This document shows positions 17,487 through 55,222 of a stretch of 64,000 nt of DNA, piece after piece. The number at the start of each line of letters is the position of its first letter. The first letter of the stretch is position 1. A program made the translations under genes and the position numbers. Source of the DNA: Elusimicrobiota bacterium (GTDB lineage Bacteria; Elusimicrobiota; Elusimicrobia; F11); the NCBI GenBank assembly GCA_003140895.1, contig PLLH01000012.1, positions 3,661 to 67,660 on the forward strand, given 5' to 3'. The notes beneath the pieces were generated by a model. The model ran no database searches and was not told the origin of the DNA. It was given only the letters and a program-made list of their open reading frames with translations.

Positions 17487-20400
17487 TTAGGCCTGAATCA
17501 ATATTTTCCTGAAGGTTTCAAACATCCCCAATTGAGACGGCGCCAGCCGAATCGCCTGAAGCGTGTTAAGAATGACGAGGACGTCAAAACTGCGCTGCAG
17601 CGCTTCCCGGGTTGAACGGCCCAGCCCAAGCCCATCGAGATTAAAGAAATTTTCCGCCAGCGGGGCCTCATTTCGGAGACGGAAGCGGTTCACGCGCCCA
17701 GACACCTCTTTGGCCAGCGCTTCATCAGTCATGTCGGGTCCGTTCACCGCTCTCAGCAAACTCCACACTGAGGAATGCGCCTTCCCATTCTCAATAAAAA
17801 TATGTTGTTCCCGGATCGATGTTCCCAGCGTTTTTTCGATTTCACGCGTCAAGACCTCCACGTCCATTTGAGGATCAACAACCAAAATCAAACGGCCCAG
17901 ATGATTCCCCCGGCTTTCTCGCTGCCGTTGCGAGATGGATTGAAGGGCTTGCTCAGCCGCCGCTTTCAGCGTGACGGGAAGCCACTCGTAACTATCCAAA
18001 GGCTGCCCTGTTTCCGTCGTATAACCAAGGCTCTCAACGGAAACGAGGAAGCGGCTGACATCGTTCTTAGAAAGAATCATCGCCAAAATGCCCGCCAGAA
18101 ACGGCGCCACGCGAGCCACGTCGCCCCGCGTCATGGTTCCCTCGCCCACTTTTTTCCTTATCTCATCCCGTAACGCCTTCGCCAATTCCGACCCCGACAC
18201 CAAGGGATCCCCAGTTCCCCCCGCCATTTTTTCTCCAACGTTCAACGAGCGGATGGTTTCCTGATCCATGAACACCGCCAACACCTGATTCAACATCTGA
18301 GCTTTATTGCCATTGTTTTCCTGAACGATTCCGATGAGTTTCGAGGCCAAGGATGAACCGGGCGTCAGTTGGGGCGCGCTATTGTTAACGACGAGATGGA
18401 AAGCGGTGGAGACGAGAATGGGAATGGAAAAGAGGGAGAAAGTGGGAAACGCCATGATGAGCGGGATCGTGACGGCCGCGATCAAAATGGAAAGACCGGC
18501 GTTCACGGGAAGCGGAGGACCCCGCTCCGCGCGAGCCTCTTTATCAAGAGCCCACATGGACAAAACGATCACCCATTCCAGAATATGAATGGCCGCGAAG
18601 ACACCCCACACCCACCACGTCGCCGCTGTCAAATCCATCCCCTGCCCATTGAGAAGCGCCATCGCCCCAAAGGCCAGGCCATTTTCAAGCACAGGCGCGA
18701 CCCACCGGTCATACGCTCCCGACGAGAGCCGGCCGCTGAACATCGGAAGAACAATCGCTTTAAGCCCGATCAGGAGGCCGCCCCTTGAAACCGATTTCAA
18801 TTTTCCCAGAGTAAACCAGTCCTCCGCGTAAGGAAGCCAATTCTCGTTTCGGTGCAACACGGATCTCACGTCCCGGAGTTCGTGAATCGCCGTAGACAAA
18901 GACATCTCGCCCGCTATCATTTTTCTCATGGCCATATGAATTCGCAAATTATTCTTCAAATGATCCGGGAATGTATTGTTCAGGATGCAAGCGAGAGAAA
19001 AAATATCGGATTCGATCGTGGCGATTCCTCCGTCAAAACGATTTTTCGGCGTGTACCCGTCTGAGTGAATCGAGTCTCCAATTTCGTATGTGTGAACGAC
19101 GGGCACAACCGACATGACATCCAGAATCCGGACCCGAATTTTTCCGTCAGACCCTTTTTGAATTTTGATGTTACCTGGTTTCAAATCGCCGTGAAGGAAC
19201 CCGGCTTCGTGCCATTTCTGCATCGTCTCCAAAATGGCGATGGCCTCATCCAACGTCAACGGCTCTTCTTGCGCCCTGTTCCATAAATCTTTTTCCTCGA
19301 TCCACTCCATCAATAAGAAAGAACGGGGGAATTTTTTCCCGACCCCCATTCCGAGAAATTCCGGAGCGGAAACAACCCCTTTGTCGCTAAGATCCTTCAA
19401 TTTTCTCCCTTCGATCCGATTGAAAGCGATGGCATAAACCAACTCCGACAAAAATCGGGGCTCCCCATTGGACATGAGTTGACTGACCGCCCCCACCTTC
19501 ACGGCGATGGCCGGGCCATTGGGACCTCCCACTTCATACGCCTTATAGACCCGTCCAAACCCGCCTCCGTAGGGGCGTCCTTTGATTTCATACGTCTTAT
19601 TTTTTACGGTGACCTTGGTCCCTTGTGGGAGAGCCATGAGCGCTTTATCTATTTCTGTTTGATTCTTTTCCAAGATATACCAGAAGTTTTTTATGGCAGA
19701 CACGTCGTCCAGTTTCTTTTGAAACGGCATATTTCTCTGAGACCAAATAAATTTTTCGTCATAACGCGGGGATACCGTTTTCATCTCCGCATGAATGTCC
19801 CTCACCTCTTGATCCGACAATTGCGCCAATAAAAGATCCCACAATTCCCGCATTTCGCTTGGTTTGGTTTCCGGGACGGGTCCAACCGGGAGAGGAGGAG
19901 GCGATGTCCGAGTAGGCTTGGCCACCGCATCTCTGCCCAACAATTTGTCAAGCGAAGGTCCATAGGTCAGAATGCTGGCAAATGGCCTCCATCGCGGCGA
20001 AACGCCTTTCAACACGCCAGCGTTGTAAAGGACGTGGATTCCCGCTGAACACCAGAAGGCGTAATCGGAAATAAAAACCGGCATGAGAGAAGTGAAAGAA
20101 AGGGAGAAGACGGCGCCGAGGAAAGAACGAACAGTGAAATCCAAGACATCTTGCCGAAGATGAATCTGATTAAAAGCTTCGCGCCATCCACGCTCTTTAG
20201 CCCGCACAATCCACGCCACAATGGTGTGGGCAAATGAAAACGTAACGGTGGCCCAACCAAAACCAACCCCCAGTGCCAACGCAGGACTTAAACCAAATCC
20301 CGTCAAAACTGTTGGAATTGAGGATACCCCCCACTGATGGAAAACTTTGGCCTCCCATAAGGAAGAGACGACAACAATCAAATTCCAATAGAGAAAGGGA

Positions 20401-23400
20401 TGTGACATTTTGAGCCTCTGAATCAACGGCAACTCTGCCAAGACAGCCATCGGCTTCGGCTTATTTTGAGATATGAACTTCTCCAGTTCCCGAATGACCT
20501 GCGCGACATCTTCTGACTGAAGCGCGGGTTCCCCCCGTTCTGCTCTATCCTTTTGCTTTCGCAATGCGGGTGAACCGGCTTTTTTTCCACGCATCTCGTC
20601 ATATCGGATTTGCTCCTTGAGATAGTTCAAATTCTCCTCCAAAAGAGTCAAACCATCGGTAGAACTTCCAGAAAACGTTTTCAAAAAAGCTTTAAAAATA
20701 AACTCGTTATTCTCCTCCGTCTCTCCATAATTTCCATAAAAAGAGATCATCCGCAGAAGACATTTATCCAAACTGACTCTTCTATCCCCCAAATCGACCA
20801 TAACAGCCATCTCAGGAGGGGCAATAAGCGCCCAGGGGAGAAACTTAGCCAAAGGACCGACGGGCGCAGTGAGTTGGGAGCCAAGGCGACTCATCCCAAA
20901 AAAACGGGATTTACTCCTACCGGTTGTCCGAGTGATAATGAAATTTTTCTCGTGGATATCTTTTGGCATCTCGCCCAAGATCCTTGAAATTTCAAGAAGG
21001 CTCTCAACAGCCAACTGCCGATGCCGGGGCAGCAATTCCCTCTTTTCCTTGAGCTCTCTTAATGTCGGGCCGTCAATAAACTCTTCTAAATAAAATTCAA
21101 GATCCCCCCCTTCGTCGACTATTGAAAAATATTTTCCAAAACGCGGAACAAAATCTGTCTCTTCGGACAACAACTCAAGATCTGTCAACTCTATTTTCCT
21201 AATGTCACCGGGAGTTTTGGGCTTCTTGACGGCAACCATGACTTTAAATGGAGATGATTTTTTTAACTCAAAATCCACTCTAAAAACCAACTTATGTGTT
21301 CCCTCCTGATGAAATTTAAGACTAACTTTGCCGGTAAAATCTTCAAGCGCAATGTTATTTCGGGTTAGGTGATTTAAAAAATCCACCACAACTGCTGACT
21401 TATTCTTGAATATAAGATGGGAAATGGCGTGCGATAGACGCACGCTCAAAATGGCGATGTCTAATTCTTTAGGGTCAGTTGTAATGTCATGTGAATAATT
21501 AACTTCCAGTCGATGAAAAATGGATGCCAGCGGCCAATTCTTAAGTAATTGATTGAGCCGCTCCGTTCCCTTTTGAAGAACTCCGAAGTTGTATCCCCGG
21601 TGACTGAACCAAGCCCAGCCAAGGGCAAGGAAAAGGATTGCCGAGGAGACAAGGAGGAAGAGAGAAAAAGACGAAATCAGCGGAAGAGCGAAGAAGACGG
21701 CAAACAAGGGTGTGTGAAAAACGGTACCGGCAACGAAAAGCTTGGTGAGTCGCCACGGGGTTGGCGGAGCCTGGACAGGCGGCGCCTGAGCGTCCGGCGA
21801 TTGTCTCTGTATGTGAAGCGAGGTGAACACCAAGTTGCTCATCACACCTGCGAACACCGCCGCCGATTTATGATCGAACGTGGCTCCAAAGAAACCCAGA
21901 GCCCCTGCGTAGAACGCGGCGAAGAAGACAGCCACCAGCGCCGTCTCAAACAGCGGCGCGACCCGCGTCGAGATTTCATCATCAAGAATGGCTTCCGCGC
22001 CAAAAAGATTCCGAAGCGGATTCAGCAGGAACCGGGTGAATAACCGCGTGAGGCCCCAGGTGGCGGTAGGTGAAGAATTCCTAAATTTGGCGGGAAGACG
22101 GAAATCGGCAGGAGGCGCCCGGTCTTGAGCTGCTTGTTTTACCGCATTCAAAATCCCAAGCCCCGCGCCACCATCTCGAAACCGCTCCAGCACCGCATTC
22201 AAAACTGTTAACTGATCTTTAAGGAACTCTCGATCATGCGTCCACTCCATTTCGGGTTCGCCCCGTTGGATATGGGTTCGCTCATGAGTGGTGGCTTCGA
22301 TAAGTGTATAGAGAAGCCGCTGAAAATTTTCCCTCTCGGAGTTTGAAAAGGAGCGACCGCCCTTAATGAGAAGTTTGTGCAGGGTTTGGAGATCCTCATA
22401 GATGGCGCCCACATCCCAAGCGATATTAAACTGCCCTACCTGCGTATAGGCAATGGCGCCCCTTTTGGCTGACGAAAAGAACTCATGTCGGCATGCTTTT
22501 GCCACTGGCATAACAGCGTCAATCGGAGCCAACACCGCCTCAACCAATCTCTGCCAGGCCAAAAGAATGGACGCCTCGGGATCATTCGGGGAAACGGGAG
22601 AGGCGTTCACTTCCTCTCGGATATTCGCGGCAAAACCGCGGGCCTTGATGAGCAACTGCCCCATTTCTGCTTCGGCTTGAGCGCGCTTAATTTGTTCTTT
22701 CAGCCAATCGGGAAGTTGTTCCAAAATCTCCTTATTCTTGAGGCCCAAAATAATGGCATCAAAACATGAAATTTTCGTTCCTTGAATGGGAATCATAGGA
22801 AGAGACATTAAAAGCAGAATGGAATTTATTTCGGCATTGAGGCCGCGCGCATAAATCGACACATCATTGACTGGTTTCCCTTCCGCCACCCGCTTTGCAT
22901 CCTCGGCAATTCGGGTACCCTCTTTCGGCTTATACGTCGCGGCATTAATAATATAGTCATACGGCAACCGATCCTTAAGATCCAAACGTCCCAGTCCCAA
23001 AAGACGCCCTACGGCGGCCATCCCCGCCAAAGCCAAGGCCGGCTTCAATTCCTCTATCTTTTTTGCGCGCCCCACAAAATCTGTCCGTCCTTCGATGGGT
23101 TCAACATCCGCTTCCAGATTTAGAACAAACCCAAATTCCGAAAGGAGTTCTAAAAACAATCGAGGAATGGGATAGGTGAATTCACCGTTTAACTGGCACA
23201 TGTAAAATTGATTTAAATTAAATGCCTGTTCGCCCACGGCGGCATAAATCTGGATCGCTTCGCCGGTGGAACTTCGCTTTACTTCAGCCAAGGGTTCCAC
23301 CTTATCATTGACCAAAATGTTATTCCATACGACCCTCATCTTTTTCTTATCAAAGAGCCCCACATAGGAGCCTAAACGAACAAAAATTTCAGAAGCAAGA

Positions 23401-26400
23401 AGTCCCGGGTTGTCTGAGGTCTTGCGCCATTCCACCGTCGTGCCGGATTTTTGATTTGTCTGGTTTTGAACGACACGCATACGGACATCGACAAGACGGT
23501 CTCCCTGTCGGACCGGCGTCAAATAAACCACCGTGGTCACGCCGTTTTTGGTGGACCTGACCCTGACATCATCTCCAGAGCGGAATAACGTGTAGAACCC
23601 CTGGCCGAAATGAAGCCAATCCGACGACCACCCGCTGGCGCTTGGCTGGAGCAGTTTGCCGATGATCTCTTGAAGGTCCATTCCAATTCCTTCATCGGAC
23701 ATGGACACCGCCAGTTCTCCGCTATCTTCGACCCAGCTGTTCACCTGGAAAACCGGAACGCTCCCGTCCTTTGAACGCCTGCTTCGGCTCGCTTCATAGG
23801 CGTTGGTGACCACTTCTCTCAAGAAAGCGTATTCGTCGGTCGTCTGTTCATAGGCGCGGCGGATACTCACGCGCGCGCGTTCCTTTAATTCTTGGGGGGC
23901 GCGCCTTGATTTTTCAGACAGGGTTGGAAGATCGCCGGCATTCGTCACCGATTTGAATTGGGATTCGCTCTCTCTATTTTGACCCATCGCCAAAATCAAA
24001 TCAGAAACTTCGACTTCAACACTCTGCTGATCTGCGGCGCCAATGGCGGAGGGCGGTTTCGAGCCGAGAGGAGGGGAATCGCTGTAGGATTGATGAAGAT
24101 GAGCCGCCAATCGGGCGCTCAGCATTCCCCTGGTTTTAAGAATCTCTTGTAGATCCTTTAACTGAAAACGGTATAGATTAGAAATAATATCAGCTTGACC
24201 CCTTCGATTATCGGAGTTCAAAAAAGAAAACTCTTGTAAGAGATCCTTTGCTTCATTCTCGCTCAAACCCGACACCAAAGACTCAAAAAGCATATTGGCT
24301 TTTTTTACTAGACTCCAAATGCCCTTGTTATCGTTAGGACCAACAGGTTCCTTTTGATACAGGGAAAAAAGCAAACTCTTGTATACTTCAACCCAACCCA
24401 TGTTAGTCAGATATTCTGGAAGATGTCGAAACCGGGTTTTGAAATAATCTGTTTTCGATCGTTCATCAGGAGGCATAAAATAGTCCAGCAGGCTTTTAAT
24501 GAAGAATCCTCTTTCAGAAAATACAGTAAAGACTGCATCATGCATTCCCACCCCCCCATACCGGTGCCCAAGCCAATACATTTCAAAGACCAGAGGATTG
24601 TCAATTTTGTACCAATCTGCTTTCCCCTCAAGGTTTTTTTGGTACCTATCCATCAATTCACGATAGACCAAGTAGAGAACAACATCTTGAATAATGACGT
24701 TGCTGTAGCTCAGCAGGGATCCTTCTTCAATGAGGAGATTAAATTCATAAAAATTTTTATTTTCAATATGATATTTGCGTATCAACTCCTTCGCTTCAGC
24801 GGAGATAACCGGCATGATCGGTTTTCCACCGCTCGTAAACAGCGAGCGAAATCGGTCAGGGAAGGACTCCCAAAAACTCCGAGGAAGAAGATTTACAAGC
24901 TCATCGGGTGGATACAAAACATTCGATAATCTATCCCAAAGTATAAATTCCTCTCTCGTCCTTGCATCTTTAGTCCCTTGTGAAAAAAATCTGTGAAAAT
25001 TAAAAGAAGAATCATTCCCCTTGAGGCCGGCCGTCTCAAATCCTTCGGTCTCATGTGCGGATTGAAGAAGTAAAGGTTTTTCTGTCTGAATGAGAGGATC
25101 GATATCGTCCCCTTCCTGCGCGGCCCGGGCCACATCCGCCACCGCTTGAAGAGCCGCCAGCGCTTCATCTTGGGTCTCCGAATTTTGAATCGCTCCTCTA
25201 AGGGATGGATCGACCAGAAGGATTCCGCCTTTGGCCAACCTCGCCCCCATAGGTCCCTTGGATTGACTCAAACGAACATAGACAATCTGGCGGAATTGAC
25301 TGTCTCGCATCGAGTCCGGGATTATCTGTTGACCGCGAGGCAAAAGTTCTTTTCTGATGAAAAAGAGGTTGGCCTGGTTCGGCACCAACGACTCTCTTAA
25401 ACTCACGTCGTCCTCCAATACCAGCCAACTATTCTTAACCGATGATCGCTGGAGGAATCCCTCTACGTGAGACCTTAGGTTCTCCATTGGATCTGAAGAC
25501 ATTACTCTCGTTTTCCCCGGAGGCGTATCTTTTTGGAGAGATTCAACAACGGGATAAAGGAGGTTCGCCATTCGGCAAAAAAGATCGGGTCGAGAATCGA
25601 ATCTCTCAGCGAGGGTGTCGATAAGGCGTTCCAACGCTTTTAAAACCGCTTGAGTCGATTTGATTTTGTCTCTGTCGCGGGCATAGTCAAAAAGATCCTT
25701 GTGAAAATCCAACACGGCCTCACCGAACTCACCAAAGGTTTCAAACCGAACAGTGGTGAAATAGACCCCGTTGATCAGGATATGGACTCCCGTTTCTTGG
25801 CCCCGGCGGGTCGTGGCCGTCTGAGGAGGAACTCTCATGCTGACGGCGCCGTCGACATCCGCAATTCTCTTAACACCCTCCTGAGAATTCAATATCCACG
25901 GTTTTCCATCCATCACCTCAATGACGGCATCTGACTTATGACGTAAAACTTTCTTGGCTTCCGTTAAGACGGAGTCTCTTTGAATTTGAGATGAAATGAT
26001 TTCAACTTCAGAACCATGACCAAGACGCGCCGCCTCTCCGGGAGAAAGTTTTAAGCAACTCATCATCAACTGACCGTTGTCTCCAAGAGAAAATTCAAAA
26101 CGATTGGCTTCCATGCCGGACACCGTCCAGATGACGACTTTGTCATCAGGTCCGGTCAAATAAGAAAAAATAGACAAAAATCCAGTGCCAAACCGGCCCG
26201 TGGTTCCTGACTGCTTAAAATTTCCACCCTCTCCGGGGTTCAAGAGCTTGGTCAAATCAGCGAGGGAAATACCCTCTCCCCAATCACGGACAACGGCCCG
26301 GCCATCTTGAATGGTGAATTGCACCTTTTTTTCCGAGTTAAATTTACTTCTGAAATTAAGACGCTCCTCCGTATCAATCGCGTTAAGAAGAATTTCAATA

Positions 26401-28958
26401 ATGGGACGGGCGCTCAAATTGGTGAACTGTTTATGAGTGAGGGAACGGATGGCGCGTCCAAACGTAACCACAGCCGACTCCGAAACGCGCGTCAATAGCT
26501 TGAGGACGGTATTCTTGCCCCGCCGGACGGCTTCGCCAATCAATTCAGTCGGGGTTCCTTGCACGGCCGCCACGAATTCGACGACGGGGAACCTTTCCTC
26601 CCGCGCTGCACGTTGGGCTATGGCATCCACGATCTGCGACTTTAATTCTCCGGATTTTCCCGTTGGCATTCCGGCCGGTTTGACGGCCGCCATGATTTTA
26701 TCCGCCAACGTATCAAAATTTTCGGGATGATCTTTATCGATGGGGAAATTTTGGAGAGCCTGTTCAATTTCTCTGCCCAACAATTTTCTGGGCGGAAGCC
26801 CGTGGGCCATAATGCTGGCCAACGGCATCCACCGCGGCAAAACGCCCGTCAAAATGCCCAAATTGGTAGAGGAATGGATCGCCATGGAAATCATTGCGGC
26901 CCACCCCAAACTCATTCCCGGGATGAGGAAAGGCGTCCCCAGACCCAACCCCACCAAGAAAAGAAGGGCCATCCGCGACGGTGTGCGATTGGGGTGAGCC
27001 CAGGCAAAAAAGGCGGCACTTAAGAGGAGAGCCACGGGTCCCACAAAAGGAACAGAGGGCAATAAGGTCTGCGCCAAGGGCAAAATCAATTGAAACACCA
27101 ATTCCCAATTGACCCCGAGAACCAAATAAATTTTTTCTTTTAAAGATGTCTGAATTTGGACATTGTCTCTGGCCGCGTCCGCCTTATCCAGAATATCCAC
27201 ATGCGCTTTAAAAAGCCGTTGTCCCATTTGAATAACAACATCGGAGGTATTTTGTATCCGGGCTGTCAGACTCGCCATCACTCGGAAAAATGTGGAGGGG
27301 TGCGTGCTATGAACAAAATCCGGACATACAAAAAGTTTTTCGCCGGAGAGTATTTTGTCGAGGGGCGTTTTCTCGCGGGCGAAAATGGATAAGTAGGCCG
27401 TTCCACTGCCCTCTTCAACTTTGGTGATTTTGGGAGAAACAACGACGTAGGAAATTTTTTGTTCTTTGAACATCTGGGCGATTTCGGGGGTGTGAAAACC
27501 GCCGGTGACGAGGACAACGGATTTCCCCCTCTCCCCCTCTCCCTTAAATAGCTTCTCCACCATTTTCTCGCTGCGGATTTCGGCTTCGCGGTAGAACGTC
27601 TCGAAAGGCGACAAATCCATGCTGTGCGAGAGCGCTTGGTACTTTTTCCATTCTTTGGGTGTCAGCGCAAACTCAATCAGTTTTCCGGCGAGTGAAAGAT
27701 ATTCGCTTCGCTTTATCAAATTCTTCTGCTCATCCGTTTGAACCAGGCGCTGAACGATGACGTTCTCAAGCTTTTCCACCGCATCAAATAGTTTGTCCGC
27801 TTTGATCCCATCGGTCAGAAGCACATAGCGGATGTAGTCATCAAACGCCGGGGTTTGCCTTAAATGGATTCCTTTCCGTTCGCAAAGCCGTTTTAATCCT
27901 TCGTAATAATCTCCAAAACTGAGTCTCCCCGTGCGATAAGCCAAGCTATTGGCGACAAGACTCGAAATCTCTTTTTCATTTAATACCCGGGTTAATTTTT
28001 CCAGAACTTGTTTTCGCTCATTCTCAACCCTCTTGAAATCGAGTGTCGATTCCATCTTAAACGCTTCAAGAAATTGGTCGACGACAACGTCATTGTCGAG
28101 ACGACCGGCGGAGAGTTTCTTAACGTAAGACCCAAGACCGACATCCCCCCGCTGATAGGCGTCCCGTAAATTGTCGAACTGGGTGAGTTCTGTCGAAAAA
28201 ACGGTTCGTTTGGACTCAGTCAGGTTTCGTTTAAATTCACCCATTTGTTTGATGACGTTCTTTTTCAATTCCCGCGAGGTCAAATACGCCTGGACGTTCG
28301 CTTTGTAGTGCTCCTGATCATCCACGCCCACGAACAAAGGCGGCTCATTGGCACTTGTCATCCCGACGAAGGAAGGGGCGGACAGGAGATTCTTATCGAG
28401 GTACGCCTCCGCGACTTGTTTTGTGATCTCTTTATCGGAGAAGGCCCGAAAGCGCGTGAAATCAAACCGGCTGAAAGCGCCTTCCACGCCGACGAGACCG
28501 ACTTGCCCCTGATCCATCAACTCTTGCAGAACGGAGACGATGTTGGTTTGCGCTTCGGGGTTTAAATGAACGTCTTGGACAAGAACCACCGCCGGCTTCG
28601 CCGAATCCCCGGAATCATAAACATCCTGAATGGAACCCGTGTTGGAAGGGATTGAAGCCACGAGCTCTTGGATTTTCTTTGAATACGTGGACGTTTTTCC
28701 TCTCAACGAGGGGTTCCATTTGAGCGCCGAGGGAAGAGTGGAATCGACACCCGGCATTTGATTGAGGAGTGTTCTCGTGGAGAGCGCTGAACCGGCCAGG
28801 GAGGCGGGAAGTGACGCCAGCTGCTTTTCTTGCCGCTCCATCGCGCGGCGGCGCTCCGTCCAAATATTCGTTTCGGAAGCGGATCCCAACACCACTTGAG
28901 AGGTGAAGAAGAAAACAGCAAGAGAAAGGGCTAGGACTTTCTTTGGTGTGTTTTCCAT
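17487..28958 (-). CDS. giant (3,823 aa) polytopic multidomain membrane protein: signal peptide + TraB/GumN-like domain + 4 TM modules + 2 Hsp90/sacsin-type GHKL ATPase modules + degenerate kinase-like + Ser/Thr kinase domain
   Basis: Single uninterrupted 11,472-nt ORF with no competing long frames. Motifs read directly: EILLNAIDTEE / DWGEGIS / GRFGTGF; EVVTNAYEAS / SDEGIGM / HFGQGFYTLF; GRPYGGGFGRVYKAYEV...AIAVK...HGDLKPGNIKI...DSIHSDGYTPKNRFDGGIATIESDIFSL; DIHEKNFII; TM modules ending in PRW(M/R)P(L/F)ASI...KLLGR. Confidence 0.8.
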   Translation of the reverse strand: MENTPKKVLALSLAVFFFTSQVVLGSASETNIWTERRRAMERQEKQLASLPASLAGSALSTRTLLNQMPGVDSTLPSALKWNPSLRGKTSTYSKKIQELVASIPSNTGSIQDVYDSGDSAKPAVVLVQDVHLNPEAQTNIVSVLQELMDQGQVGLVGVEGAFSRFDFTRFRAFSDKEITKQVAEAYLDKNLLSAPSFVGMTSANEPPLFVGVDDQEHYKANVQAYLTSRELKKNVIKQMGEFKRNLTESKRTVFSTELTQFDNLRDAYQRGDVGLGSYVKKLSAGRLDNDVVVDQFLEAFKMESTLDFKRVENERKQVLEKLTRVLNEKEISSLVANSLAYRTGRLSFGDYYEGLKRLCERKGIHLRQTPAFDDYIRYVLLTDGIKADKLFDAVEKLENVIVQRLVQTDEQKNLIKRSEYLSLAGKLIEFALTPKEWKKYQALSHSMDLSPFETFYREAEIRSEKMVEKLFKGEGERGKSVVLVTGGFHTPEIAQMFKEQKISYVVVSPKITKVEEGSGTAYLSIFAREKTPLDKILSGEKLFVCPDFVHSTHPSTFFRVMASLTARIQNTSDVVIQMGQRLFKAHVDILDKADAARDNVQIQTSLKEKIYLVLGVNWELVFQLILPLAQTLLPSVPFVGPVALLLSAAFFAWAHPNRTPSRMALLFLVGLGLGTPFLIPGMSLGWAAMISMAIHSSTNLGILTGVLPRWMPLASIMAHGLPPRKLLGREIEQALQNFPIDKDHPENFDTLADKIMAAVKPAGMPTGKSGELKSQIVDAIAQRAAREERFPVVEFVAAVQGTPTELIGEAVRRGKNTVLKLLTRVSESAVVTFGRAIRSLTHKQFTNLSARPIIEILLNAIDTEERLNFRSKFNSEKKVQFTIQDGRAVVRDWGEGISLADLTKLLNPGEGGNFKQSGTTGRFGTGFLSIFSYLTGPDDKVVIWTVSGMEANRFEFSLGDNGQLMMSCLKLSPGEAARLGHGSEVEIISSQIQRDSVLTEAKKVLRHKSDAVIEVMDGKPWILNSQEGVKRIADVDGAVSMRVPPQTATTRRGQETGVHILINGVYFTTVRFETFGEFGEAVLDFHKDLFDYARDRDKIKSTQAVLKALERLIDTLAERFDSRPDLFCRMANLLYPVVESLQKDTPPGKTRVMSSDPMENLRSHVEGFLQRSSVKNSWLVLEDDVSLRESLVPNQANLFFIRKELLPRGQQIIPDSMRDSQFRQIVYVRLSQSKGPMGARLAKGGILLVDPSLRGAIQNSETQDEALAALQAVADVARAAQEGDDIDPLIQTEKPLLLQSAHETEGFETAGLKGNDSSFNFHRFFSQGTKDARTREEFILWDRLSNVLYPPDELVNLLPRSFWESFPDRFRSLFTSGGKPIMPVISAEAKELIRKYHIENKNFYEFNLLIEEGSLLSYSNVIIQDVVLYLVYRELMDRYQKNLEGKADWYKIDNPLVFEMYWLGHRYGGVGMHDAVFTVFSERGFFIKSLLDYFMPPDERSKTDYFKTRFRHLPEYLTNMGWVEVYKSLLFSLYQKEPVGPNDNKGIWSLVKKANMLFESLVSGLSENEAKDLLQEFSFLNSDNRRGQADIISNLYRFQLKDLQEILKTRGMLSARLAAHLHQSYSDSPPLGSKPPSAIGAADQQSVEVEVSDLILAMGQNRESESQFKSVTNAGDLPTLSEKSRRAPQELKERARVSIRRAYEQTTDEYAFLREVVTNAYEASRSRRSKDGSVPVFQVNSWVEDSGELAVSMSDEGIGMDLQEIIGKLLQPSASGWSSDWLHFGQGFYTLFRSGDDVRVRSTKNGVTTVVYLTPVRQGDRLVDVRMRVVQNQTNQKSGTTVEWRKTSDNPGLLASEIFVRLGSYVGLFDKKKMRVVWNNILVNDKVEPLAEVKRSSTGEAIQIYAAVGEQAFNLNQFYMCQLNGEFTYPIPRLFLELLSEFGFVLNLEADVEPIEGRTDFVGRAKKIEELKPALALAGMAAVGRLLGLGRLDLKDRLPYDYIINAATYKPKEGTRIAEDAKRVAEGKPVNDVSIYARGLNAEINSILLLMSLPMIPIQGTKISCFDAIILGLKNKEILEQLPDWLKEQIKRAQAEAEMGQLLIKARGFAANIREEVNASPVSPNDPEASILLAWQRLVEAVLAPIDAVMPVAKACRHEFFSSAKRGAIAYTQVGQFNIAWDVGAIYEDLQTLHKLLIKGGRSFSNSERENFQRLLYTLIEATTHERTHIQRGEPEMEWTHDREFLKDQLTVLNAVLERFRDGGAGLGILNAVKQAAQDRAPPADFRLPAKFRNSSPTATWGLTRLFTRFLLNPLRNLFGAEAILDDEISTRVAPLFETALVAVFFAAFYAGALGFFGATFDHKSAAVFAGVMSNLVFTSLHIQRQSPDAQAPPVQAPPTPWRLTKLFVAGTVFHTPLFAVFFALPLISSFSLFLLVSSAILFLALGWAWFSHRGYNFGVLQKGTERLNQLLKNWPLASIFHRLEVNYSHDITTDPKELDIAILSVRLSHAISHLIFKNKSAVVVDFLNHLTRNNIALEDFTGKVSLKFHQEGTHKLVFRVDFELKKSSPFKVMVAVKKPKTPGDIRKIELTDLELLSEETDFVPRFGKYFSIVDEGGDLEFYLEEFIDGPTLRELKEKRELLPRHRQLAVESLLEISRILGEMPKDIHEKNFIITRTTGRSKSRFFGMSRLGSQLTAPVGPLAKFLPWALIAPPEMAVMVDLGDRRVSLDKCLLRMISFYGNYGETEENNEFIFKAFLKTFSGSSTDGLTLLEENLNYLKEQIRYDEMRGKKAGSPALRKQKDRAERGEPALQSEDVAQVIRELEKFISQNKPKPMAVLAELPLIQRLKMSHPFLYWNLIVVVSSLWEAKVFHQWGVSSIPTVLTGFGLSPALALGVGFGWATVTFSFAHTIVAWIVRAKERGWREAFNQIHLRQDVLDFTVRSFLGAVFSLSFTSLMPVFISDYAFWCSAGIHVLYNAGVLKGVSPRWRPFASILTYGPSLDKLLGRDAVAKPTRTSPPPLPVGPVPETKPSEMRELWDLLLAQLSDQEVRDIHAEMKTVSPRYDEKFIWSQRNMPFQKKLDDVSAIKNFWYILEKNQTEIDKALMALPQGTKVTVKNKTYEIKGRPYGGGFGRVYKAYEVGGPNGPAIAVKVGAVSQLMSNGEPRFLSELVYAIAFNRIEGRKLKDLSDKGVVSAPEFLGMGVGKKFPRSFLLMEWIEEKDLWNRAQEEPLTLDEAIAILETMQKWHEAGFLHGDLKPGNIKIQKGSDGKIRVRILDVMSVVPVVHTYEIGDSIHSDGYTPKNRFDGGIATIESDIFSLACILNNTFPDHLKNNLRIHMAMRKMIAGEMSLSTAIHELRDVRSVLHRNENWLPYAEDWFTLGKLKSVSRGGLLIGLKAIVLPMFSGRLSSGAYDRWVAPVLENGLAFGAMALLNGQGMDLTAATWWVWGVFAAIHILEWVIVLSMWALDKEARAERGPPLPVNAGLSILIAAVTIPLIMAFPTFSLFSIPILVSTAFHLVVNNSAPQLTPGSSLASKLIGIVQENNGNKAQMLNQVLAVFMDQETIRSLNVGEKMAGGTGDPLVSGSELAKALRDEIRKKVGEGTMTRGDVARVAPFLAGILAMILSKNDVSRFLVSVESLGYTTETGQPLDSYEWLPVTLKAAAEQALQSISQRQRESRGNHLGRLILVVDPQMDVEVLTREIEKTLGTSIREQHIFIENGKAHSSVWSLLRAVNGPDMTDEALAKEVSGRVNRFRLRNEAPLAENFFNLDGLGLGRSTREALQRSFDVLVILNTLQAIRLAPSQLGMFETFRKILIQA

Positions 28959-29079: not shown

Positions 29080-30114
29080 TTAACTTCCCATGTACGCGTA
29101 GGCTTTTTGGCCCACGGAGGCGATGACCCCTTTGGCTTTTCGGTAGTTCCCCAGGTGCCCGGTCAAAACGCAGAGGATGTAATCCCCGTCGGGTGAAAAC
29201 ACAATCCCGACATCATGGCAATTCCGGCGGAGAAGCCCTGTTTTATGCGCCAATTTCCACGTTCGAGGAAGATACGTGGACAGCCGGCTATGGCTGTTAA
29301 CGCCCTTAAGAATCTCAAGCATCGCGTCGCTCAAGGCGCTATTGACCATCTTACGATTGTAAATCTGTTCCAGGAGAAACCCCATTTCCCGGGCGGTGGT
29401 GTAATTGTCTTTATCGGAACGCAGGCGATCGGCCAAACTCATGCCGGAGGGGTTGATCCGCGTCGTCATAAGACCCAATTTTTCAAATGTTTGATTCAAA
29501 TAATCATACCCCAGCCGGTCAATAACCATGGCGGTGGCGGTGTTGTCCGAACGCGTGATCATCTCGTAAATGAGAGAGGAAACCGAGTACGCGGAGCCGG
29601 AACGCGCCCACTTAAGACGTCCGGATCCTCCTCGACGGAAATTTCTCTTGAGCGCCATCCGGGAACTGAGGGACAACCGTCCCTCATTGATGGCTTCAAA
29701 CGCTGCCACCATGATCGGCAGTTTGATAAGACTGGCGCTCACAAACGGCTTGTCGGCATCCTTTTCAAAGGTCCGGCCTGTTTTCAAATCTTTAATATAG
29801 AGTCCCACGTCGCCGTCGTAATGGGAGATCACCCCTGAAATAGACCCGATCATTTGAGCCCACCGGCGGTCGTCAGCCTGAATGGGAACCGGTTCCACTG
29901 AAATCGCCACGGGGCGAGGACACAGGCCAAAGAAGAGGCCGACGAGAAGGAGTACCATCCCGACCCATCCCCAAGAAGCGCTAACAGCGAACGTGGGGAC
30001 CGGTTTCTCGTTGACCTTCGAATAATGAATCGCGTGGTTTCGTGGCATGTTCACTAGAGAATGTACCAGCCAAAACCGTAAATTTCCAACATTTCTTATA
30101 AGAAACAACTTCAT
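29080..30114 (-). CDS. membrane-anchored class A beta-lactamase-like serine hydrolase
   Basis: SxxK (FVSASLIK), SDN (RSDNTA) and KTG (HKTG) motifs in canonical order. N-terminal hydrophobic anchor WGWVGMVLLLVGLFFGL. Start codon choice uncertain. Confidence 0.65.
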   Translation of the reverse strand: MKLFLIRNVGNLRFWLVHSLVNMPRNHAIHYSKVNEKPVPTFAVSASWGWVGMVLLLVGLFFGLCPRPVAISVEPVPIQADDRRWAQMIGSISGVISHYDGDVGLYIKDLKTGRTFEKDADKPFVSASLIKLPIMVAAFEAINEGRLSLSSRMALKRNFRRGGSGRLKWARSGSAYSVSSLIYEMITRSDNTATAMVIDRLGYDYLNQTFEKLGLMTTRINPSGMSLADRLRSDKDNYTTAREMGFLLEQIYNRKMVNSALSDAMLEILKGVNSHSRLSTYLPRTWKLAHKTGLLRRNCHDVGIVFSPDGDYILCVLTGHLGNYRKAKGVIASVGQKAYAYMGS

Positions 30115-31213: not shown

Positions 31214-32092
31214 TCATTGAACGGACCCATTTTTTTTGAGATTCAAAAATATTTCCCGAGTGGACTGCGATTTATTGAGCGTGAAGAAATGAATCCCGGG
31301 GGCGCCTTTCTTCAGAAGCTCCGTGCATTGAGCCGTGGCGTAGCGAATACCAGCCTCAATAACGCGGGCCTTGTCGGACTTGACCTTTTCCAGTTCGGCG
31401 AGGAGGGTCGGCGGAATCGTCGCGCCCGACATCGACGTAAAACGTTTAATTTGGTCCACGTCCGTGATGGGCATGATGCCGGCGATGACCGGCGTTGTCA
31501 CGCCGATGGAGCGAAGCCGCTTCACAAAATTGAAATAGTCCCGGTTATCGAAGAAAAGCTGAGTGACCACGAAATCGCCGCCGGCGTCAACTTTGGTTTT
31601 AAGGTGTTCCAAATCTTTTTCCAGGGTCGGCGCTTCGGGATGTTTTTCCGGGTACCCGGCCACGCCGACGCAAAAGTTAAATTCCTTTCGGATGAATTGC
31701 ACCAGTTCCGACCCGTACCGGAAGCCGTCCGGCGCCTGGACAAAACGGGTTTGCCCTTTGGGCGGGTCTCCCCGGAGCGCCACGATATTTTCGATTCCTT
31801 CTCCTTCGAGTTCTTTAAGAAGCCCTCGAAGTTCCGACTGGGAATGCCCCACGCACGTGAGGTGCGCCACCGCTTCAAGGACAATCTTATGTTTGATGGC
31901 CGAGACCAGGGACACCGTCCTCTCGCGCGTGCTCCCGCCCGCGCCGTAGGTCATGGACACGAACGAGGGCTTAAGCTCTTTCAGCGCTTGAATCGTTTCC
32001 ATCAACGTAGCGACGCCTTCATTTGTTTTCGGCGGGAAAAATTCAAACGAGACGAGCGGCTTTTTTCCGTTGAGAAATTGTTTCACTTTCAT
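31214..32092 (-). CDS. metF: 5,10-methylenetetrahydrofolate reductase
   Basis: 292 aa. N-terminus LVSFEFFPPKT and TIM-barrel MetF motifs. Confidence 0.9.
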   Translation of the reverse strand: MKVKQFLNGKKPLVSFEFFPPKTNEGVATLMETIQALKELKPSFVSMTYGAGGSTRERTVSLVSAIKHKIVLEAVAHLTCVGHSQSELRGLLKELEGEGIENIVALRGDPPKGQTRFVQAPDGFRYGSELVQFIRKEFNFCVGVAGYPEKHPEAPTLEKDLEHLKTKVDAGGDFVVTQLFFDNRDYFNFVKRLRSIGVTTPVIAGIMPITDVDQIKRFTSMSGATIPPTLLAELEKVKSDKARVIEAGIRYATAQCTELLKKGAPGIHFFTLNKSQSTREIFLNLKKNGSVQ

Positions 32093-38200: not shown

Positions 38201-38905
38201 CATGGCGGCGCTGGAGAGCGTTGTTTTGGAAAGGGCGCTCACCGCGATATCCGGGTGAGGCCCCACGGCCACGGTTCCGCCGCCATCCACCTGATTGGTG
38301 GTGACGATATAGGTCAAATACAAATCGGAGGCGCCGGACAAATCAAACGCCAGTTTGATCCAATCTTTGATTTCCTGGAAGGTGGAAGGTTCAATGATGG
38401 GCATGTTCAAATGTTTGGAGAGGTAGCGGGAGTCCGAATTGATCTGAGTGGTTTCGTTCCAGGGGTCGTCTCCAACGACGCAAAGGGAGCCGCCCTGGCG
38501 CTGGCGCGTTTCCATGAGGTTCCCGATCGCCAAGCCGTCGGCGGCCACGTGCATTCCGACGGATTTCATGACCGCCATGGCGCGCAGACCCACCTGGCGG
38601 GCGCCGTTGAGTCGAGCCGCGGCCAACCCTTCGTTGTTCGCGATTTGAGCGACGATCCCGCGCTGGGTGATGTAGGGCGCGATGTCGGTGATCACTTCAA
38701 ACACGTCCGACACCGGAGACCCGGGATAGCCGGTGATAAGCCCCACACCGGCCTCAAGAGCCCCTTTCACCAGGAGCTCGTTCCCGGTGTAGGCTTCCAC
38801 GCCGGAAAATGTGAGGAAACGGCTGTCCACCCCTTCCCGGGTCCGAGGTTTATACGTCGGACCGGAACGATTGGGAGCCGTTTTCGTGAGCGGGGAAAAT
38901 TTCAT
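35234..38905 (-). CDS. indolepyruvate/2-oxoacid:ferredoxin oxidoreductase family protein (fused IorA-IorB with DUF6537-like C-terminus)
   Basis: 1,223 aa. TPP motif GDSTFFHSGM. Two Cys clusters CEYCLACTTETGCPGL / CVDDGACARTKACPSF. IorB-like AVGGMGAGIVNAVLVRAG region. Confidence 0.8.
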   Translation of the reverse strand: MKFSPLTKTAPNRSGPTYKPRTREGVDSRFLTFSGVEAYTGNELLVKGALEAGVGLITGYPGSPVSDVFEVITDIAPYITQRGIVAQIANNEGLAAARLNGARQVGLRAMAVMKSVGMHVAADGLAIGNLMETRQRQGGSLCVVGDDPWNETTQINSDSRYLSKHLNMPIIEPSTFQEIKDWIKLAFDLSGASDLYLTYIVTTNQVDGGGTVAVGPHPDIAVSALSKTTLSSAAMNISDTVMIPPHTSWREATLKERHARLLSRARDIGINKRHGPKRVRMPVGFVSSGLSYSYLEEVLKMIGLWERTPVLKLGLTYPISPDDILEIADHVEHLVVVEEKRGFLEEQISEALVSLKQAGRLPKPPALWGKKFPDGEPGFPATRGLNVSIMLEVLGPAFLRWKEYFPTLQIDRIQNELKEIRHTESASYDVPLRTPTFCPGCPHRDSATVSLRMKKKFMNADAMAAQGSRPMDLIFHGESGCHSMLQFAPNEGLMQSYSGMGLGGGTGAGMSPFIANKQVVFLGDSTFFHSGMIAISDSIKNDQEITYIILENKTTAMTGHQPTPGNEFDVVGRKTVAQDIERVLRGMIPDGLFIARANPSDRVTYQTLVEQTVVKPGVKVIIADKECAITLHRRLSAEKKKVLKKKGFLAREEKINVTPEVCEYCLACTTETGCPGLTVEETAYGRKIATDLSACVDDGACARTKACPSFEKVVIKRKRAVPPTDIEHLNLTDLPMPAVGMKEERWQAYTAAVGGMGAGIVNAVLVRAGMRQGYEVSFLDKKGLAIRNGGVYGHIVFSKREPVCSPVIPYGKADLLIGLDLLEAARALDARMNLRVAHPVRTHGVINTHKNETVLSLMGRQDFDPAKLEEVIRAKVISNGYLSADFSQLSEKYLGSKLYANMMVLGSAFQSGWIPLSEENLLLAIDETVRQADVPANHKAFYLGRYIVVHPEFARPAFKTETLGELIDKNARYLTQTFFFTGKRRASEYRKLMDQVFRWLDLPKDCGLLMARTIYDLIRYGGPPMAHQYVLRIWNTYRKDQKKFGFRATRSVIMNLFRVMAIKDEIWVPRLLTSPEKYERDRERYNIDPKRGDKISYLHFNRPRFVVFGKAYEFDLNTIDPMLLLMSHAGFLRRLLPGWHKEEKDFRDWYMVLVDNFEFFKSEEDYESYVKALAVVDDVKGYREIRSERMNKARELARTALSRIAAYQPSLAINPASKKAPRL

Positions 38906-55020: not shown

Positions 55021-55222
55021 TTTTTCAAAAGACGTCCGGAAGCTGCTTCTGGAACACTGGACGTTTGGCGAGATTGAGTCCCGGTTATCGGACCCGGCTT
55101 ATTTTTTTGAACAGGTGGTACTTCCGCGGCTGGCGTATCTTCGTCGAAACGGCAAAGACGTCCCCACGCTTCGCCTTCAGCAATCTCCCAACAACCCGCT
55201 GCGCGTGATTCTGATCCCTTAG
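55007..55222 (+). CDS. hypothetical small protein (GTG start, 71 aa)
   Basis: AAGGAAA Shine-Dalgarno 4 nt before GTG 55007. No family assignment. Overlaps the MauE stop. Confidence 0.25.
   Translation: MQLSDFSKDVRKLLLEHWTFGEIESRLSDPAYFFEQVVLPRLAYLRRNGKDVPTLRLQQSPNNPLRVILIP

Follow-up and report, generated by a model that had tools for sequence, protein, structure and literature searches.

The window, a stretch of 64,000 nt, carries on its minus strand a stop-free reading frame for a protein of 3,823 aa, with its ATG at 28958 and its stop at 17487. The parts discussed below are as follows, in order from the N terminus.

17487..28958, minus strand: complete ORF, 3,823 aa plus stop; unbroken frame with family-typical N and C termini
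28875..28958, minus strand: signal-peptide-like or anchor segment, aa 1-28; two Lys, 21 uncharged residues, small-x-small box (G-S-A-S)
28845..28874, minus strand: motif E-x-N-x-W-x-E-R-R, aa 29-38, directly after the hydrophobic segment
27384..28691, minus strand: putative hydrolase head of the TIKI/TraB/ChaN fold, aa 90-525; D129, H131, E159, R462, G486, G487, H489
26799..27143, minus strand: membrane module 1, CPBP/Rce1-like, aa 606-720; E619, F651-x3-H655, H695-x3-N699, tail P-L-A-S at 712-715; PF02517 E 0.007
21999..26798, minus strand: region with both GHKL modules, aa 721-2320
26157..26408, minus strand: GHKL ATPase module 1, sacsin/Hsp90-type, aa 851-934; N-box 855-862, G1 892-898, G2 921-927
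23430..23837, minus strand: GHKL ATPase module 2, aa 1708-1843; N-box 1715-1722, G1 1755-1761, G2 1783-1788
21507..21986, minus strand: membrane module 2, CPBP/Rce1-like, aa 2325-2484
20394..21503, minus strand: conserved region, aa 2486-2855; VAVKK 2575-2579, KDIHEKN 2666-2672, RFFGMS 2685-2690, lacking the Asp of DFG
19959..20393, minus strand: membrane module 3, CPBP/Rce1-like, aa 2856-3000
18969..19607, minus strand: Hanks-type Ser/Thr kinase, aa 3118-3330; G-loop 3131-3137, K3154, D3258, N3263, D3280
18327..18725, minus strand: membrane module 4, CPBP/Rce1-like, aa 3412-3544
17490..18323, minus strand: C-terminal domain, aa 3546-3823, ending ...FRKILIQA-COOH

The initial annotation, made from the letters of the window, had described a single unbroken 11.5-kb frame, and this description holds: four assembled contigs, including one of 150 kb, encode the identical 3,823-aa protein. 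Furthermore, the ORF starts with the N terminus and ends with the tail (...LIQA-COOH) that are canonical for its family, which indicates a complete gene and no frameshift fusion. At about 50% GC, simple arithmetic puts the chance of 3,823 stop-free codons at ~(61/64)^3823, about e^-183. An assembly chimera, or sequencing errors joining separate genes, might be suspected from the metagenomic source of the assembly and from the GC content, which varies from 0.434 to 0.583 between modules of the gene; however, the four identical copies, the canonical termini, the stop-free length and the occurrence of complete relatives of 2,200 to 3,850 aa in independent metagenome-assembled genomes (MAGs), with library proteins of up to 7,525 aa, make such an artefact scarcely credible. 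Thus, 17487-28958 is confirmed as a genuine, complete Elusimicrobiota gene. Two plus-strand ORFs of 164 and 191 aa overlap it, so the earlier statement that no competing ORF exceeds 140 aa was slightly off. A second giant ORF in the window was considered as a relative and rejected, being unrelated to the head-defined family, and no Rfam family matched anywhere in the 64,000 nt.

Domains of the 3,823-residue protein

The protein begins, as had been claimed, with a segment resembling a signal peptide, the layout of which is conserved. Across the family, the hydrophobic stretch is fixed at 20 to 22 residues, with K/R at positions -22/-23, N/Q at -8 and an [AG]-[HSY]-[AST] box at -4 to -2. The E-x-N-x-W-x-E-R-R motif that follows occupies fixed positions, with E present in 106 of 107 sequences and both W and R in all 107.

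The head, which takes in broadly the N-terminal ~520 aa, shows a TIKI alpha/beta fold with a parallel beta-sheet core, modeled confidently by AlphaFold and interrupted by a helical insertion of ~260 aa (about 215-470). The seven residues listed above are invariant in 15 diverse relatives, and D129-x-H131, E159 and H489 (plus R462) are also kept in 12 to 27 further members. The fold is that of a superfamily comprising ChaN, TraB/PrgY/GumN, the erythromycin esterases, RRSP, PMT and HopBA1, and the head shares with it the two His, two acidic residues and the Arg. The residues essential in RRSP are E3900-x-H3902, E3930, R4001 and H4030 (PMC6254334); the head mirrors this set in its spacing (D-x-H, 28 aa, E ... 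R, 27 aa, H), with the 2His/2Glu catalytic set of PMC6254334 present as two His and two acids, Asp standing in place of Glu as the first acid. It differs from the superfamily, moreover, in the helical insertion and in being always N-terminal in very long proteins, where it follows a conserved hydrophobic segment. The closest structural relative is ChaN, a lipoprotein. ChaN, Tiki and PrgY are extracytoplasmic. The head had previously been called TraB/GumN-like; the broader assignment to the TIKI/TraB/ChaN fold stands, whereas the TraB/GumN model itself (PF01963) did not match the 3,823-aa protein and PF04187, to which the relatives also match weakly, scored 13.9 bits against a cut-off of 27.7. 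The head of this protein thus lies below every Pfam threshold. Given its complete catalytic constellation (Asp/His, Glu, Arg, His), the head is a putative hydrolase, and retention of the full set suggests an enzyme rather than a ligand sensor.

The four repeated multi-helix membrane modules reported in the initial annotation proved to be homologous copies with four helices in each. We collected 71 copies from 42 relatives, up to five per protein, over which Glu is kept in 67, each of two His in all 71, Asn in 66 and Phe in 66. Motif 2 (F-x3-H) and motif 3 (H-x3-N) occur in all four copies of the 3,823-aa protein. PF02517 was the only Pfam family matched by more than one of 36 module copies (9 of the 36 at E ≤ 0.1, best E 3e-4), and module 1 reached 17 bits against a cut-off of 22.4. 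In a structural search, SpdC, APH-1 and Rce1 were among the top matches, yet they scored no better than unrelated helical bundles; a PDB sequence search with the module profile was uninformative. The conserved Glu, the F-x3-H in the next helix and the H-x3-N two helices on are those of the CPBP proteins (Rce1, SpdC/LyrA and the myxosortase MrtX; PF02517). Judging from this motif pattern, each module is probably a remote relative of the CPBP/Rce1 intramembrane proteases, with a similarity below the Pfam threshold. Unlike CPBP proteins, which are stand-alone proteins of ~200 to 300 aa, the modules comprise a four-helix core only, are repeated up to five times inside a giant chain, and are each followed by a conserved P-L-A-S tail; their Glu lies in the context A-P-x-[WL]-E-[TN], with no second Glu or Arg, in place of the E-E-x3-R of motif 1.

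Two Hsp90/sacsin-type GHKL modules had also been proposed, and both bear the N-box, G1 and G2 motifs of the Bergerat fold, as in sacsin, Hsp90 and MORC. Their profile scores are marginal: HATPase_c_3 matched module 1 at 884-934 with 26.7 bits against 25, HATPase_c matched module 2 at 1713-1843 just under its cut-off (26.3 against 26.4), and the sacsin-type model NF047352 of NCBIfam scored 36.2 bits at 851-933, below its cut-off of 50. In contrast to sacsin, Hsp90 and MORC, neither module has a recognizable middle or transducer domain, and the surrounding ~1,600 aa (721-2320, 42% of the chain) yielded no detected homologue outside the ATP-binding motifs. Pattern scans of genome contigs for aa 1650-2330 and of metagenome contigs for aa 730-1300 detected no relatives, and PDB sequence searches with the two modules were uninformative. 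Recent internal duplication of the GHKL modules was rejected, as they share only the ATP-binding motifs.

Toward the C terminus, Pkinase matched aa 3132-3329 with 32.0 bits in the whole protein and 37.7 bits as a segment, above the cut-off of 31.7. With its catalytic Lys, Asp, Asn and Asp in place, aa 3118-3330 looks like an active Ser/Thr kinase, in agreement with the earlier description of an intact one. It resembles bacterial kinases of the PknB/Stk1 type in its G-loop, Lys, H-G-D...N loop and Mg-binding Asp, and departs from them in having D-V-M in place of D-F-G, no attached PASTA or other sensor domain, and a position between two CPBP-like modules. The region at aa 2486-2855, previously annotated as a degenerate kinase-like domain, could not be confirmed as such: it had no Pfam match at E ≤ 10 and no PDB match, and hhalign against the family kinases gave a weak match (E 0.031) that aligns the hinge and catalytic-loop motifs. 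It is 33% identical to aa 1447-1809 of one relative, P0160 (E 6e-54), has the lowest GC content in the gene (0.434) and may represent a protein-kinase-like domain that has degenerated. No significant similarity links the two kinase-type regions, and recent internal duplication was rejected here as well.

The chain closes with the ~270-aa C-terminal domain noted before, which we found to be a conserved unit of ~280 aa in five relatives (P0020, P0070, P0075, P0110 and L013); together with module 4, it forms a unit common to P0110 and P0075. It had no match in Pfam or the PDB, including a PDB search with the domain profile. Complete family members end in a conserved, near-universal ...x-x-Ala tail.

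A large Elusimicrobiota family with shuffled cargo

Word-indexed searches with aa 721-2000 and aa 2460-3823 returned no match. The database used listed nothing above ~2,040 aa, did not return the query itself and probably omits very long proteins; we therefore turned to DNA-level loci and to an exhaustive search of a protein library. The locus scan used a 5-sequence alignment, since 15 aligned sequences proved too diverse. With the head profile, the exhaustive search recovered 10,298 cluster representatives, of which 7,007 had E ≤ 1e-30. Among the best 150 of these 10,298 matches, the head begins within the first ~30 residues in almost all, and lengths range from 539 to 7,525 aa; many family members are 2,000 to 7,500 aa long. 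The locus scan identified 20 related GTDB loci, all in Elusimicrobiota MAGs and several per genome, with ORFs that include one complete ORF of 3,848 aa and others of at least 3,908, 3,547 and 3,215 aa. Every named or located member is from the Elusimicrobiota. Thus, the 3,823-aa protein belongs to a very large and as yet unnamed family of long modular proteins in the Elusimicrobiota, which comprises more than 10,000 sequence clusters and has been missed by curated domain libraries.

Behind the head, the family members differ widely. The N-terminal 546 aa used as a query matched 53 Elusimicrobia proteins of highly varied Pfam content. The cargo is of cytoplasmic type and mostly metabolic or regulatory, much of it metabolic and not signaling: kinases, PP2C, LMWPc, GGDEF, receiver, NUDIX, methyltransferase, GNAT and ADK domains, and also PFK, PPDK_N, glycogen synthase/phosphorylase and AAA_5. 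Different pieces of the 3,823-aa protein are common to different relatives, and the spread of GC content between its modules agrees with such mosaicism; the cargo between head and tail is shuffled as modules from paralog to paralog. One relative, L004, combines the head, HATPase_c and three Pkinase domains, so the combination of domains is not unprecedented, contrary to the initial annotation. Multi-enzyme, multi-helix long proteins have, moreover, already been described in Omnitrophota (bioRxiv 10.1101/2023.11.21.568195 and 10.64898/2026.06.07.730766).

Membrane topology and possible working

Because each membrane module has four helices, both of its ends lie on the same side of the membrane. 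In the 71-copy alignment, the density of K plus R per residue is 0.166 in the b-c loop and 0.12 to 0.13 in the flanks, compared to 0.007 in the a-b loops and 0.040 in the c-d loops; in the 3,823-aa protein, 29 K/R lie on the flank side and 1 on the opposite side. We relied on the aligned CPBP-like modules since a crude, hydropathy-based test of charge bias over all family helices showed no bias and was uninformative. Furthermore, in several relatives the head is followed by regions of PP2C, NUDIX, HD-like or GNAT-like type with no intervening membrane segment.

Our preferred reading, to which we give a probability of about one-half, is an array of cytoplasm-type enzymes that is stapled to the membrane and may also process itself. 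Each four-helix module would insert as two hairpins, so that the chain would be stapled at several points to the cytoplasmic membrane with all soluble domains on one face; the cytoplasmic face is favored both by the loop charges and by the cofactors that the enzymes require. The outcome would be a membrane-tethered, ATP-dependent array of phospho-signaling or regulatory enzymes. Since catalytic residues are conserved both in the head and in the CPBP-like modules, proteolytic processing may take place at the membrane surface; it could act on client proteins or on the chain itself, with the conserved P-L-A-S segment behind each module as one candidate site. A bolder version, which we consider quite unlikely, would make the family a class of self-processing membrane polyproteins in which the N-terminal signal with its E-x-N-x-W-x-E-R-R motif, a TIKI-type protease head, the CPBP modules and the tail act as a sorting grammar, with cuts at P-L-A-S or CAAX-like trimming of ...[LA]-x-x-Ala; it might underlie the Omnitrophota giants as well.

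The N terminus speaks against a cytoplasmic placing, as its basic residues, hydrophobic stretch and small-x-small box are typical of either a Sec signal peptide or an N-in signal anchor and conflict with the positive-inside pattern that the modules show. Read literally, this signal would place the head outside the cytoplasm and all other domains with it. The extracytoplasmic location of ChaN, Tiki and PrgY likewise speaks against a cytoplasmic head. The array would then be exported, with the head and enzymes in the periplasm, on the outer face or delivered to another cell, the hairpins serving to anchor or insert it and the protease-like modules to release cargo. Such export is a possible, if somewhat unlikely, alternative. 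It agrees with the shared sidedness of the head and all soluble parts, with the many divergent paralogs per genome and their shuffled cargo, and with the occurrence of TIKI folds in the toxins RRSP and PMT and the effector HopBA1 (PMC6254334); its logic resembles that of autoprocessing MARTX toxins or of Omnitrophota proteins with a signal peptide and transmembrane segments (SP+TM), and for the latter, DeepTMHMM has likewise placed the enzyme content on the outer face (10.64898/2026.06.07.730766). On the other hand, enzymes dependent on ATP, S-adenosylmethionine (SAM), acetyl-CoA or sugar phosphates, and receiver domains, have no obvious extracellular supply; the basic loops would be trans, against the positive-inside rule; in 24% of members, the putative cleavage site is followed by Pro; and neither a type I/IX secretion signal nor an adhesin, lectin or cell-wall hydrolase domain was detected. 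Elusimicrobiota are not known to be predators. The protein also lacks the marks of a MARTX-type autoprocessing toxin, with no RTX repeats or cysteine protease domain (Pfam/NCBIfam) and no adjoining secretion genes. The initial annotation had instead seen a self-contained transmembrane signaling machine, which can be read as a receptor whose extracytoplasmic TraB-like domain senses a signal and passes it through the membrane to GHKL and kinase outputs in the cytoplasm. The signal-peptide-like start followed by a TIKI/ChaN-type domain would suit such a receptor, as would the kinase, phosphatase, GGDEF and receiver domains among the family cargo, which resemble signaling outputs. It would, however, need an odd number of spans before the first cytoplasmic domain, and module 1, just as the three modules homologous to it, comprises four helices; several relatives have no span at all after the head, the catalytic set of which fits an enzyme, and much of the cargo is metabolic. 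We regard a receptor as a poor fit and very unlikely.

A "conflict machine" had been offered as well, which can be read as an anti-phage or inter-genomic conflict system with the GHKL and kinase modules as sensor and effector. Sacsin/MORC-type GHKL modules do occur in conflict systems, the family evolves as a mosaic, and the kinase is weakly similar to the MADS6, PD-T4-6 and MkoA kinases (NCBIfam, PADLOC). Nonetheless, the PADLOC matches, with E values down to 9e-15, are to generic kinase models and confined to the kinase core (aa 3098-3372), and no defense-specific model was matched. Neither the protein nor its neighbors include a nuclease, HEPN, TIR, methylase or other defense partner, the family cargo is mostly metabolic or regulatory, and the genes around it have chromosomal housekeeping roles (MTHFR, 2-oxoacid:ferredoxin oxidoreductase, Omp85 and OmpA). 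Thus, a role in conflict lacks specific support and is highly improbable. Directly upstream on the same strand, as noted earlier, lies a beta-lactamase-like gene (29080-30114; Beta-lactamase2, E 1e-59) at a distance of 121 nt. A search for orthologs and conserved synteny had been suggested; relatives were found, and the linkage to the beta-lactamase-like gene was conserved at none of the 20 related loci. Among these loci, a conserved neighborhood of beta-lactamase, Omp85 and OmpA genes was likewise rejected; only an MTHFR gene was seen again, a single time and differently arranged.

Comparison with Omnitrophota giants

The closest described kind of protein is the multi-enzyme, multi-helix long proteins of Omnitrophota ("Archaeovorin"-type and "class 1 multi-enzyme" SP+TM giants). 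The likeness is one of architecture and repertoire: a single chain that starts with a signal-peptide-like segment and is interspersed with many membrane helices, the same paradox of cytoplasm-type enzymes predicted outside the cell, and a common set of domains that comprises HATPase_c, methyltransferase, GNAT, HD, NUDIX, GGDEF, starch/glycogen synthase, PPDK_N, AAA_5, HEAT and kinases. The 3,823-aa protein, in contrast, is from the Elusimicrobiota, measures 3.8 kaa compared to at least 10 and up to 147 kaa, and lacks the SecA_DEAD and C39 peptidase domains frequent in the Omnitrophota giants. Conversely, the TIKI-fold head, the CPBP-like four-helix modules and the Ala-terminal tail are unmentioned for those giants in 10.1101/2023.11.21.568195 and 10.64898/2026.06.07.730766, and the words "CPBP" and "CAAX" are absent from the text of the former. 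No mechanism is known for the Omnitrophota multi-enzyme giants; the 3,823-aa protein offers a small, tractable example of a protein with a similar architecture. The TIKI-fold head, the repeated CPBP-like modules with their strongly conserved catalytic residues and the near-universal Ala tail are three concrete handles that make two questions experimentally simple: where the cytoplasm-type enzymes of signal-peptide-bearing megaproteins sit, and whether the chains are cut. The Elusimicrobiota are, moreover, reported to be unusually rich in huge, unannotated proteins (PMC11573180).

The megaprotein gene and its surroundings

The megaprotein gene and the genes around it are arranged as follows.

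ATG 28958 to stop 17487, minus strand: megaprotein ORF, a single open frame of 3,823 aa
29080-30114, minus strand, upstream of the megaprotein gene: class-A-type beta-lactamase/PBP-like gene (PF13354, E 1e-59)
Above about 30115 (542-832 in locus L001), just upstream of the beta-lactamase-like gene: ClpS-like adaptor gene
31214-32092: MTHFR gene
35234-38905, minus strand: fused 2-oxoacid:ferredoxin oxidoreductase gene (POR, TPP_enzyme_C, DUF6537; 1,223 aa)
Downstream of the megaprotein gene, convergent: Omp85 gene

As the initial annotation had stated, the frame is unbroken from 28958 to 17487 and encodes 3,823 aa; its claim that no competing ORF exceeds 140 aa was slightly off, as two plus-strand ORFs, of 164 and 191 aa, overlap it. 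By our own arithmetic, the chance of 3,823 stop-free codons is (61/64)^3823, or about e^-183, and a stop-free stretch of this length is not expected by chance. The neighbors are ordinary chromosomal genes, encoding OmpA, MTHFR, GNAT, 2-oxoacid:ferredoxin oxidoreductase, Omp85, and a CHU_C-domain protein; the oxidoreductase and MTHFR genes mark the region as ordinary anaerobe chromosome. The beta-lactamase-like gene indeed lies on the same strand across a gap of 121 nt. None of the immediate neighbors recurs beside family members at 20 related loci; thus, the link of the beta-lactamase-like gene to the megaprotein gene is incidental. The ClpS-like adaptor gene (96 aa), two genes upstream of the megaprotein, lies between the OmpA-family and beta-lactamase-like genes.

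A family defined by its head and tail

Residues 1 to 546, which include the head (the N-terminal ~520 aa), matched 53 proteins of 700 to 2,040 aa, from Elusimicrobia wherever the source names them. Beyond the head, the domains of these relatives differ widely, with a Pfam content of NUDIX, LMWPc, PP2C, methyltransferases, PFK, glycogen synthase/phosphorylase, GNAT, adenylate kinase, GGDEF, EamA, Metallophos, and HEAT. The word-indexed protein database searched gave no protein above ~2,040 aa and did not return the query itself, which understates giant relatives; therefore, the family was sought at the DNA level. A scan of GTDB species representatives identified 20 head loci, all in Elusimicrobiota MAGs and at most five per genome. 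Head-starting ORFs at these loci included one complete ORF of 3,848 aa and others that ran off the contig after at least 3,908, 3,547, 3,215, and 3,152 aa. Furthermore, an exhaustive HMMER search with a head profile recovered 10,298 cluster representatives at E<=1e-3 (7,007 at E<=1e-30); among the best 150 of the 10,298, almost all have a head that begins no later than residue ~30, and lengths range from 539 to 7,525 aa. Judging from these searches, the megaprotein is of ordinary size within a very large family for which Pfam and NCBIfam have no model. At the loci L007 and L008, on a 99-kb contig (JAJAPZ010000004.1, Ca. Obscuribacterium magneticum), a family gene (2,748-aa ORF) was reported at both contig ends in opposite orientation, with identical coordinates and scores for the two copies; the pair reflects an inverted terminal duplication or else an artefact of assembly.

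Ala is the C-terminal residue in 113 of 185 family proteins, with the consensus ...R-x-[IAV]-[LA]-x-[AQSN]-A-COOH. In the GTDB loci, each of the four complete ORFs terminates in x-N-A or x-Q-A, and 14 of the 15 ORFs running off a contig end lack the terminal Ala. Nearly all complete family members end in Ala, as does the megaprotein:

17490-17522, minus strand: megaprotein tail, ...FRKILIQA

The family tail, together with a canonical start, shows the megaprotein ORF to be one complete family member. The Ala tail may serve in sorting, as a degron, or as a site of CAAX-like processing.

Catalytic and membrane regions

Across 15 diverse heads, D129, H131, E159, R462, G486, G487, and H489 are invariant. 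The sole Pfam match of the head was PF04187, far under threshold. Its structural relatives (scores in parentheses) were a TraB-family protein (8.4), the MARTX effector RRSP (8.3), two Ere-like "succinoglycan biosynthesis" proteins (8.1), EreC and HopBA1 (7.2), and PMT (6.4), which are recognized members of the TIKI superfamily (PMC6254334). In RRSP, E3900-x-H3902, E3930, R4001, and H4030 are essential (PMC6254334). The head has D129-x-H131, E159 28 residues on, and R462 27 residues before H489, with spacing equal to that of RRSP, but differs in a ~260-residue helical insertion. Thus, the initial label of "TraB/GumN-like" is right at the superfamily level. With these residues, the head is more suggestive of an active hydrolase than of a passive sensor.

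The four repeated multi-helix transmembrane modules described initially were recovered as four hydrophobic blocks homologous to one another (modules 1 to 4, at aa 606-720, 2325-2484, 2856-3000, and 3412-3544), and an AlphaFold model of module 3 contained four long helices (pLDDT 73). Each module carries a Glu on helix 1, F-x3-H ending helix 2, and H-x3-N on helix 4, a pattern that we take to be that of CPBP/Rce1 intramembrane proteases; a P-L-A-S segment usually lies ~15 to 25 residues past H-x3-N. Module 1 matched PF02517 (E 0.007), the only Pfam family matched by more than one of 36 module copies (9 of 36, best E 3e-4), with all nine matches under the gathering score. Of ~205 family proteins, 42 yielded module copies in iterated searches, 71 in total and at most five in any one protein; both His residues are kept in every copy, the Glu in 67, and the Asn and Phe in 66 each. 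We conclude with moderate confidence that the module is a minimal, remote CPBP relative.

Profile searches recovered most of the other domains proposed, as listed here.

aa 851-934: GHKL module 1 (HATPase_c_3 and a sacsin-type NCBIfam domain)
aa 1713-1843: GHKL module 2 (HATPase_c)
aa 3132-3329: Pkinase domain (32.0 bits versus a cut-off of 31.7; 37.7 bits as a scanned segment)

The exception was the "degenerate kinase-like domain," a region at ~aa 2486-2855 that had no Pfam or PDB match. Both GHKL modules keep the N-box, G1, and G2, beyond which they have nothing in common, and residues 721 to 2320, which hold both, had no relative detectable in any search. The kinase retains the G-loop, K3154, D3258, N3263, and D3280 and was matched by PADLOC kinase models, down to 9e-15. 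A family-kinase profile weakly matched aa 2486-2855 (E 0.031), with EEFIDG falling at the hinge, KDIHEKN at the catalytic loop, and RFFGMS at the DFG position; this alignment would fit a putative pseudokinase without the DFG Asp. The region is a real conserved unit, as a 387-aa stretch matches part of the family protein P0160 with 33% identity (E 6e-54).

The last ~280 aa form a domain common to the family proteins P0020, P0070, P0075, and P0110 and the GTDB relative L013, with no fold match in Pfam or PDB. The match to P0075 and P0110 extends over the CPBP-like module preceding this domain. P0070 combines it with counterparts of module 3 and the kinase, P0160 has the kinase-like region in common with the megaprotein, and P0063, P0059, and P0144 have only modules in common with it. 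GC content along the gene varies by segment from 0.434 (kinase-like region) to 0.583 (module 4), with a window mean of 0.529. Such piecewise sharing and uneven GC point to module shuffling and are consistent with a mosaic origin. The domain combination, initially considered unique, recurs in kind in L004, from another Elusimicrobia MAG, which joins the head to HATPase_c and three Pkinase domains.

Topology, mechanism, and comparison with known giants

Each module has four helices, and therefore both of its flanks lie on one side of the membrane. Loop charges agree: in the 71 copies, K+R per residue was 0.166 in the b-c loop and 0.12 to 0.13 in the flanks, versus 0.007 in a-b and 0.040 in c-d loops, and the megaprotein has 29 K/R on the flank side versus 1 on the opposite side. 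The positive-inside rule would place the K+R-rich flanks in the cytoplasm, and with them every soluble domain, the head included. In several relatives, no membrane span separates the head from PP2C, NUDIX, HD-like, or GNAT-like regions, and cargo across the family is almost all of cytoplasm type, including receiver domains, PPDK_N, ADK, and PFK; both fit a cytoplasmic placement.

The N terminus, however, points the other way, as it resembles a Sec signal peptide or an N-in anchor.

28845-28958, minus strand: signal-peptide-like segment and the motif after it, as at family N termini

Family N termini have K/R at -23/-22, then an uncharged stretch of a constant 20 to 22 residues, T/S then N/Q at -9/-8, and an [AG]-[HSY]-[AST] box at -4 to -2, just past which E, W, and R are invariant. 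The segment is far better conserved in sequence than ordinary signal peptides, and its length is also constant (21 uncharged residues); in 24% of members, the residue after the putative cleavage site is Pro. This conservation and the Pro suggest a dedicated anchoring or sorting role, and the segment resembles a dedicated sorting signal more closely than it does a generic Sec signal peptide.

As our best model, with a probability of about 0.5, we propose a membrane-stapled array, in which the four-helix modules would insert as hairpin pairs and hold the GHKL ATPases, kinase-type domains, and C-terminal domain at one face, most likely the cytoplasmic one; the catalytic sets kept in the head and modules suggest membrane proteolysis, possibly of the protein's own chain at P-L-A-S. 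The main rival takes the signal peptide at face value and puts the entire array outside the cell, in line with the proposal for Omnitrophota giants; the N terminus speaks for it and the charge pattern against it, and we consider it a good deal less probable. The signaling machine originally envisaged, with a sensor outside and outputs inside, is unlikely, as it clashes with the even helix count per module and with those relatives in which no membrane span follows the head. A role in defense has little support and is improbable. Least credible is an artefact, which likewise has little support: the identical megaprotein was called on four assembled contigs, one of them 150 kb (ENA sample ERZ27254256).

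Among described proteins, the nearest in kind are the multi-enzyme, multi-helix long proteins of Omnitrophota (10.1101/2023.11.21.568195; 10.64898/2026.06.07.730766), in which cytoplasm-type enzymes are predicted outside the cell, the same paradox. The megaprotein has the domain repertoire and the topology puzzle in common with them, but it is not a member of that set, because it comes from another phylum, is much shorter, and lacks both SecA and C39 domains. Huge, unannotated proteins are reportedly abundant in Elusimicrobiota (PMC11573180). The literature searched described neither the TIKI head, nor the repeated CPBP-like modules, nor the Ala tail. The single megaprotein is less exceptional than initially claimed, but it reveals a family grammar that is new and can be tested.

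The window contains one more giant ORF, at 55219-63972 on the minus strand; it spans at least 2,917 aa, with its frame open to the window end at 64000. It had no Pfam match and no similarity to the megaprotein. Its many hydrophobic peaks, with clusters at ~aa 880-1600 and 2130-2650, point to some 20 helices or more. The same genome thus has a further "dark" polytopic megaprotein.
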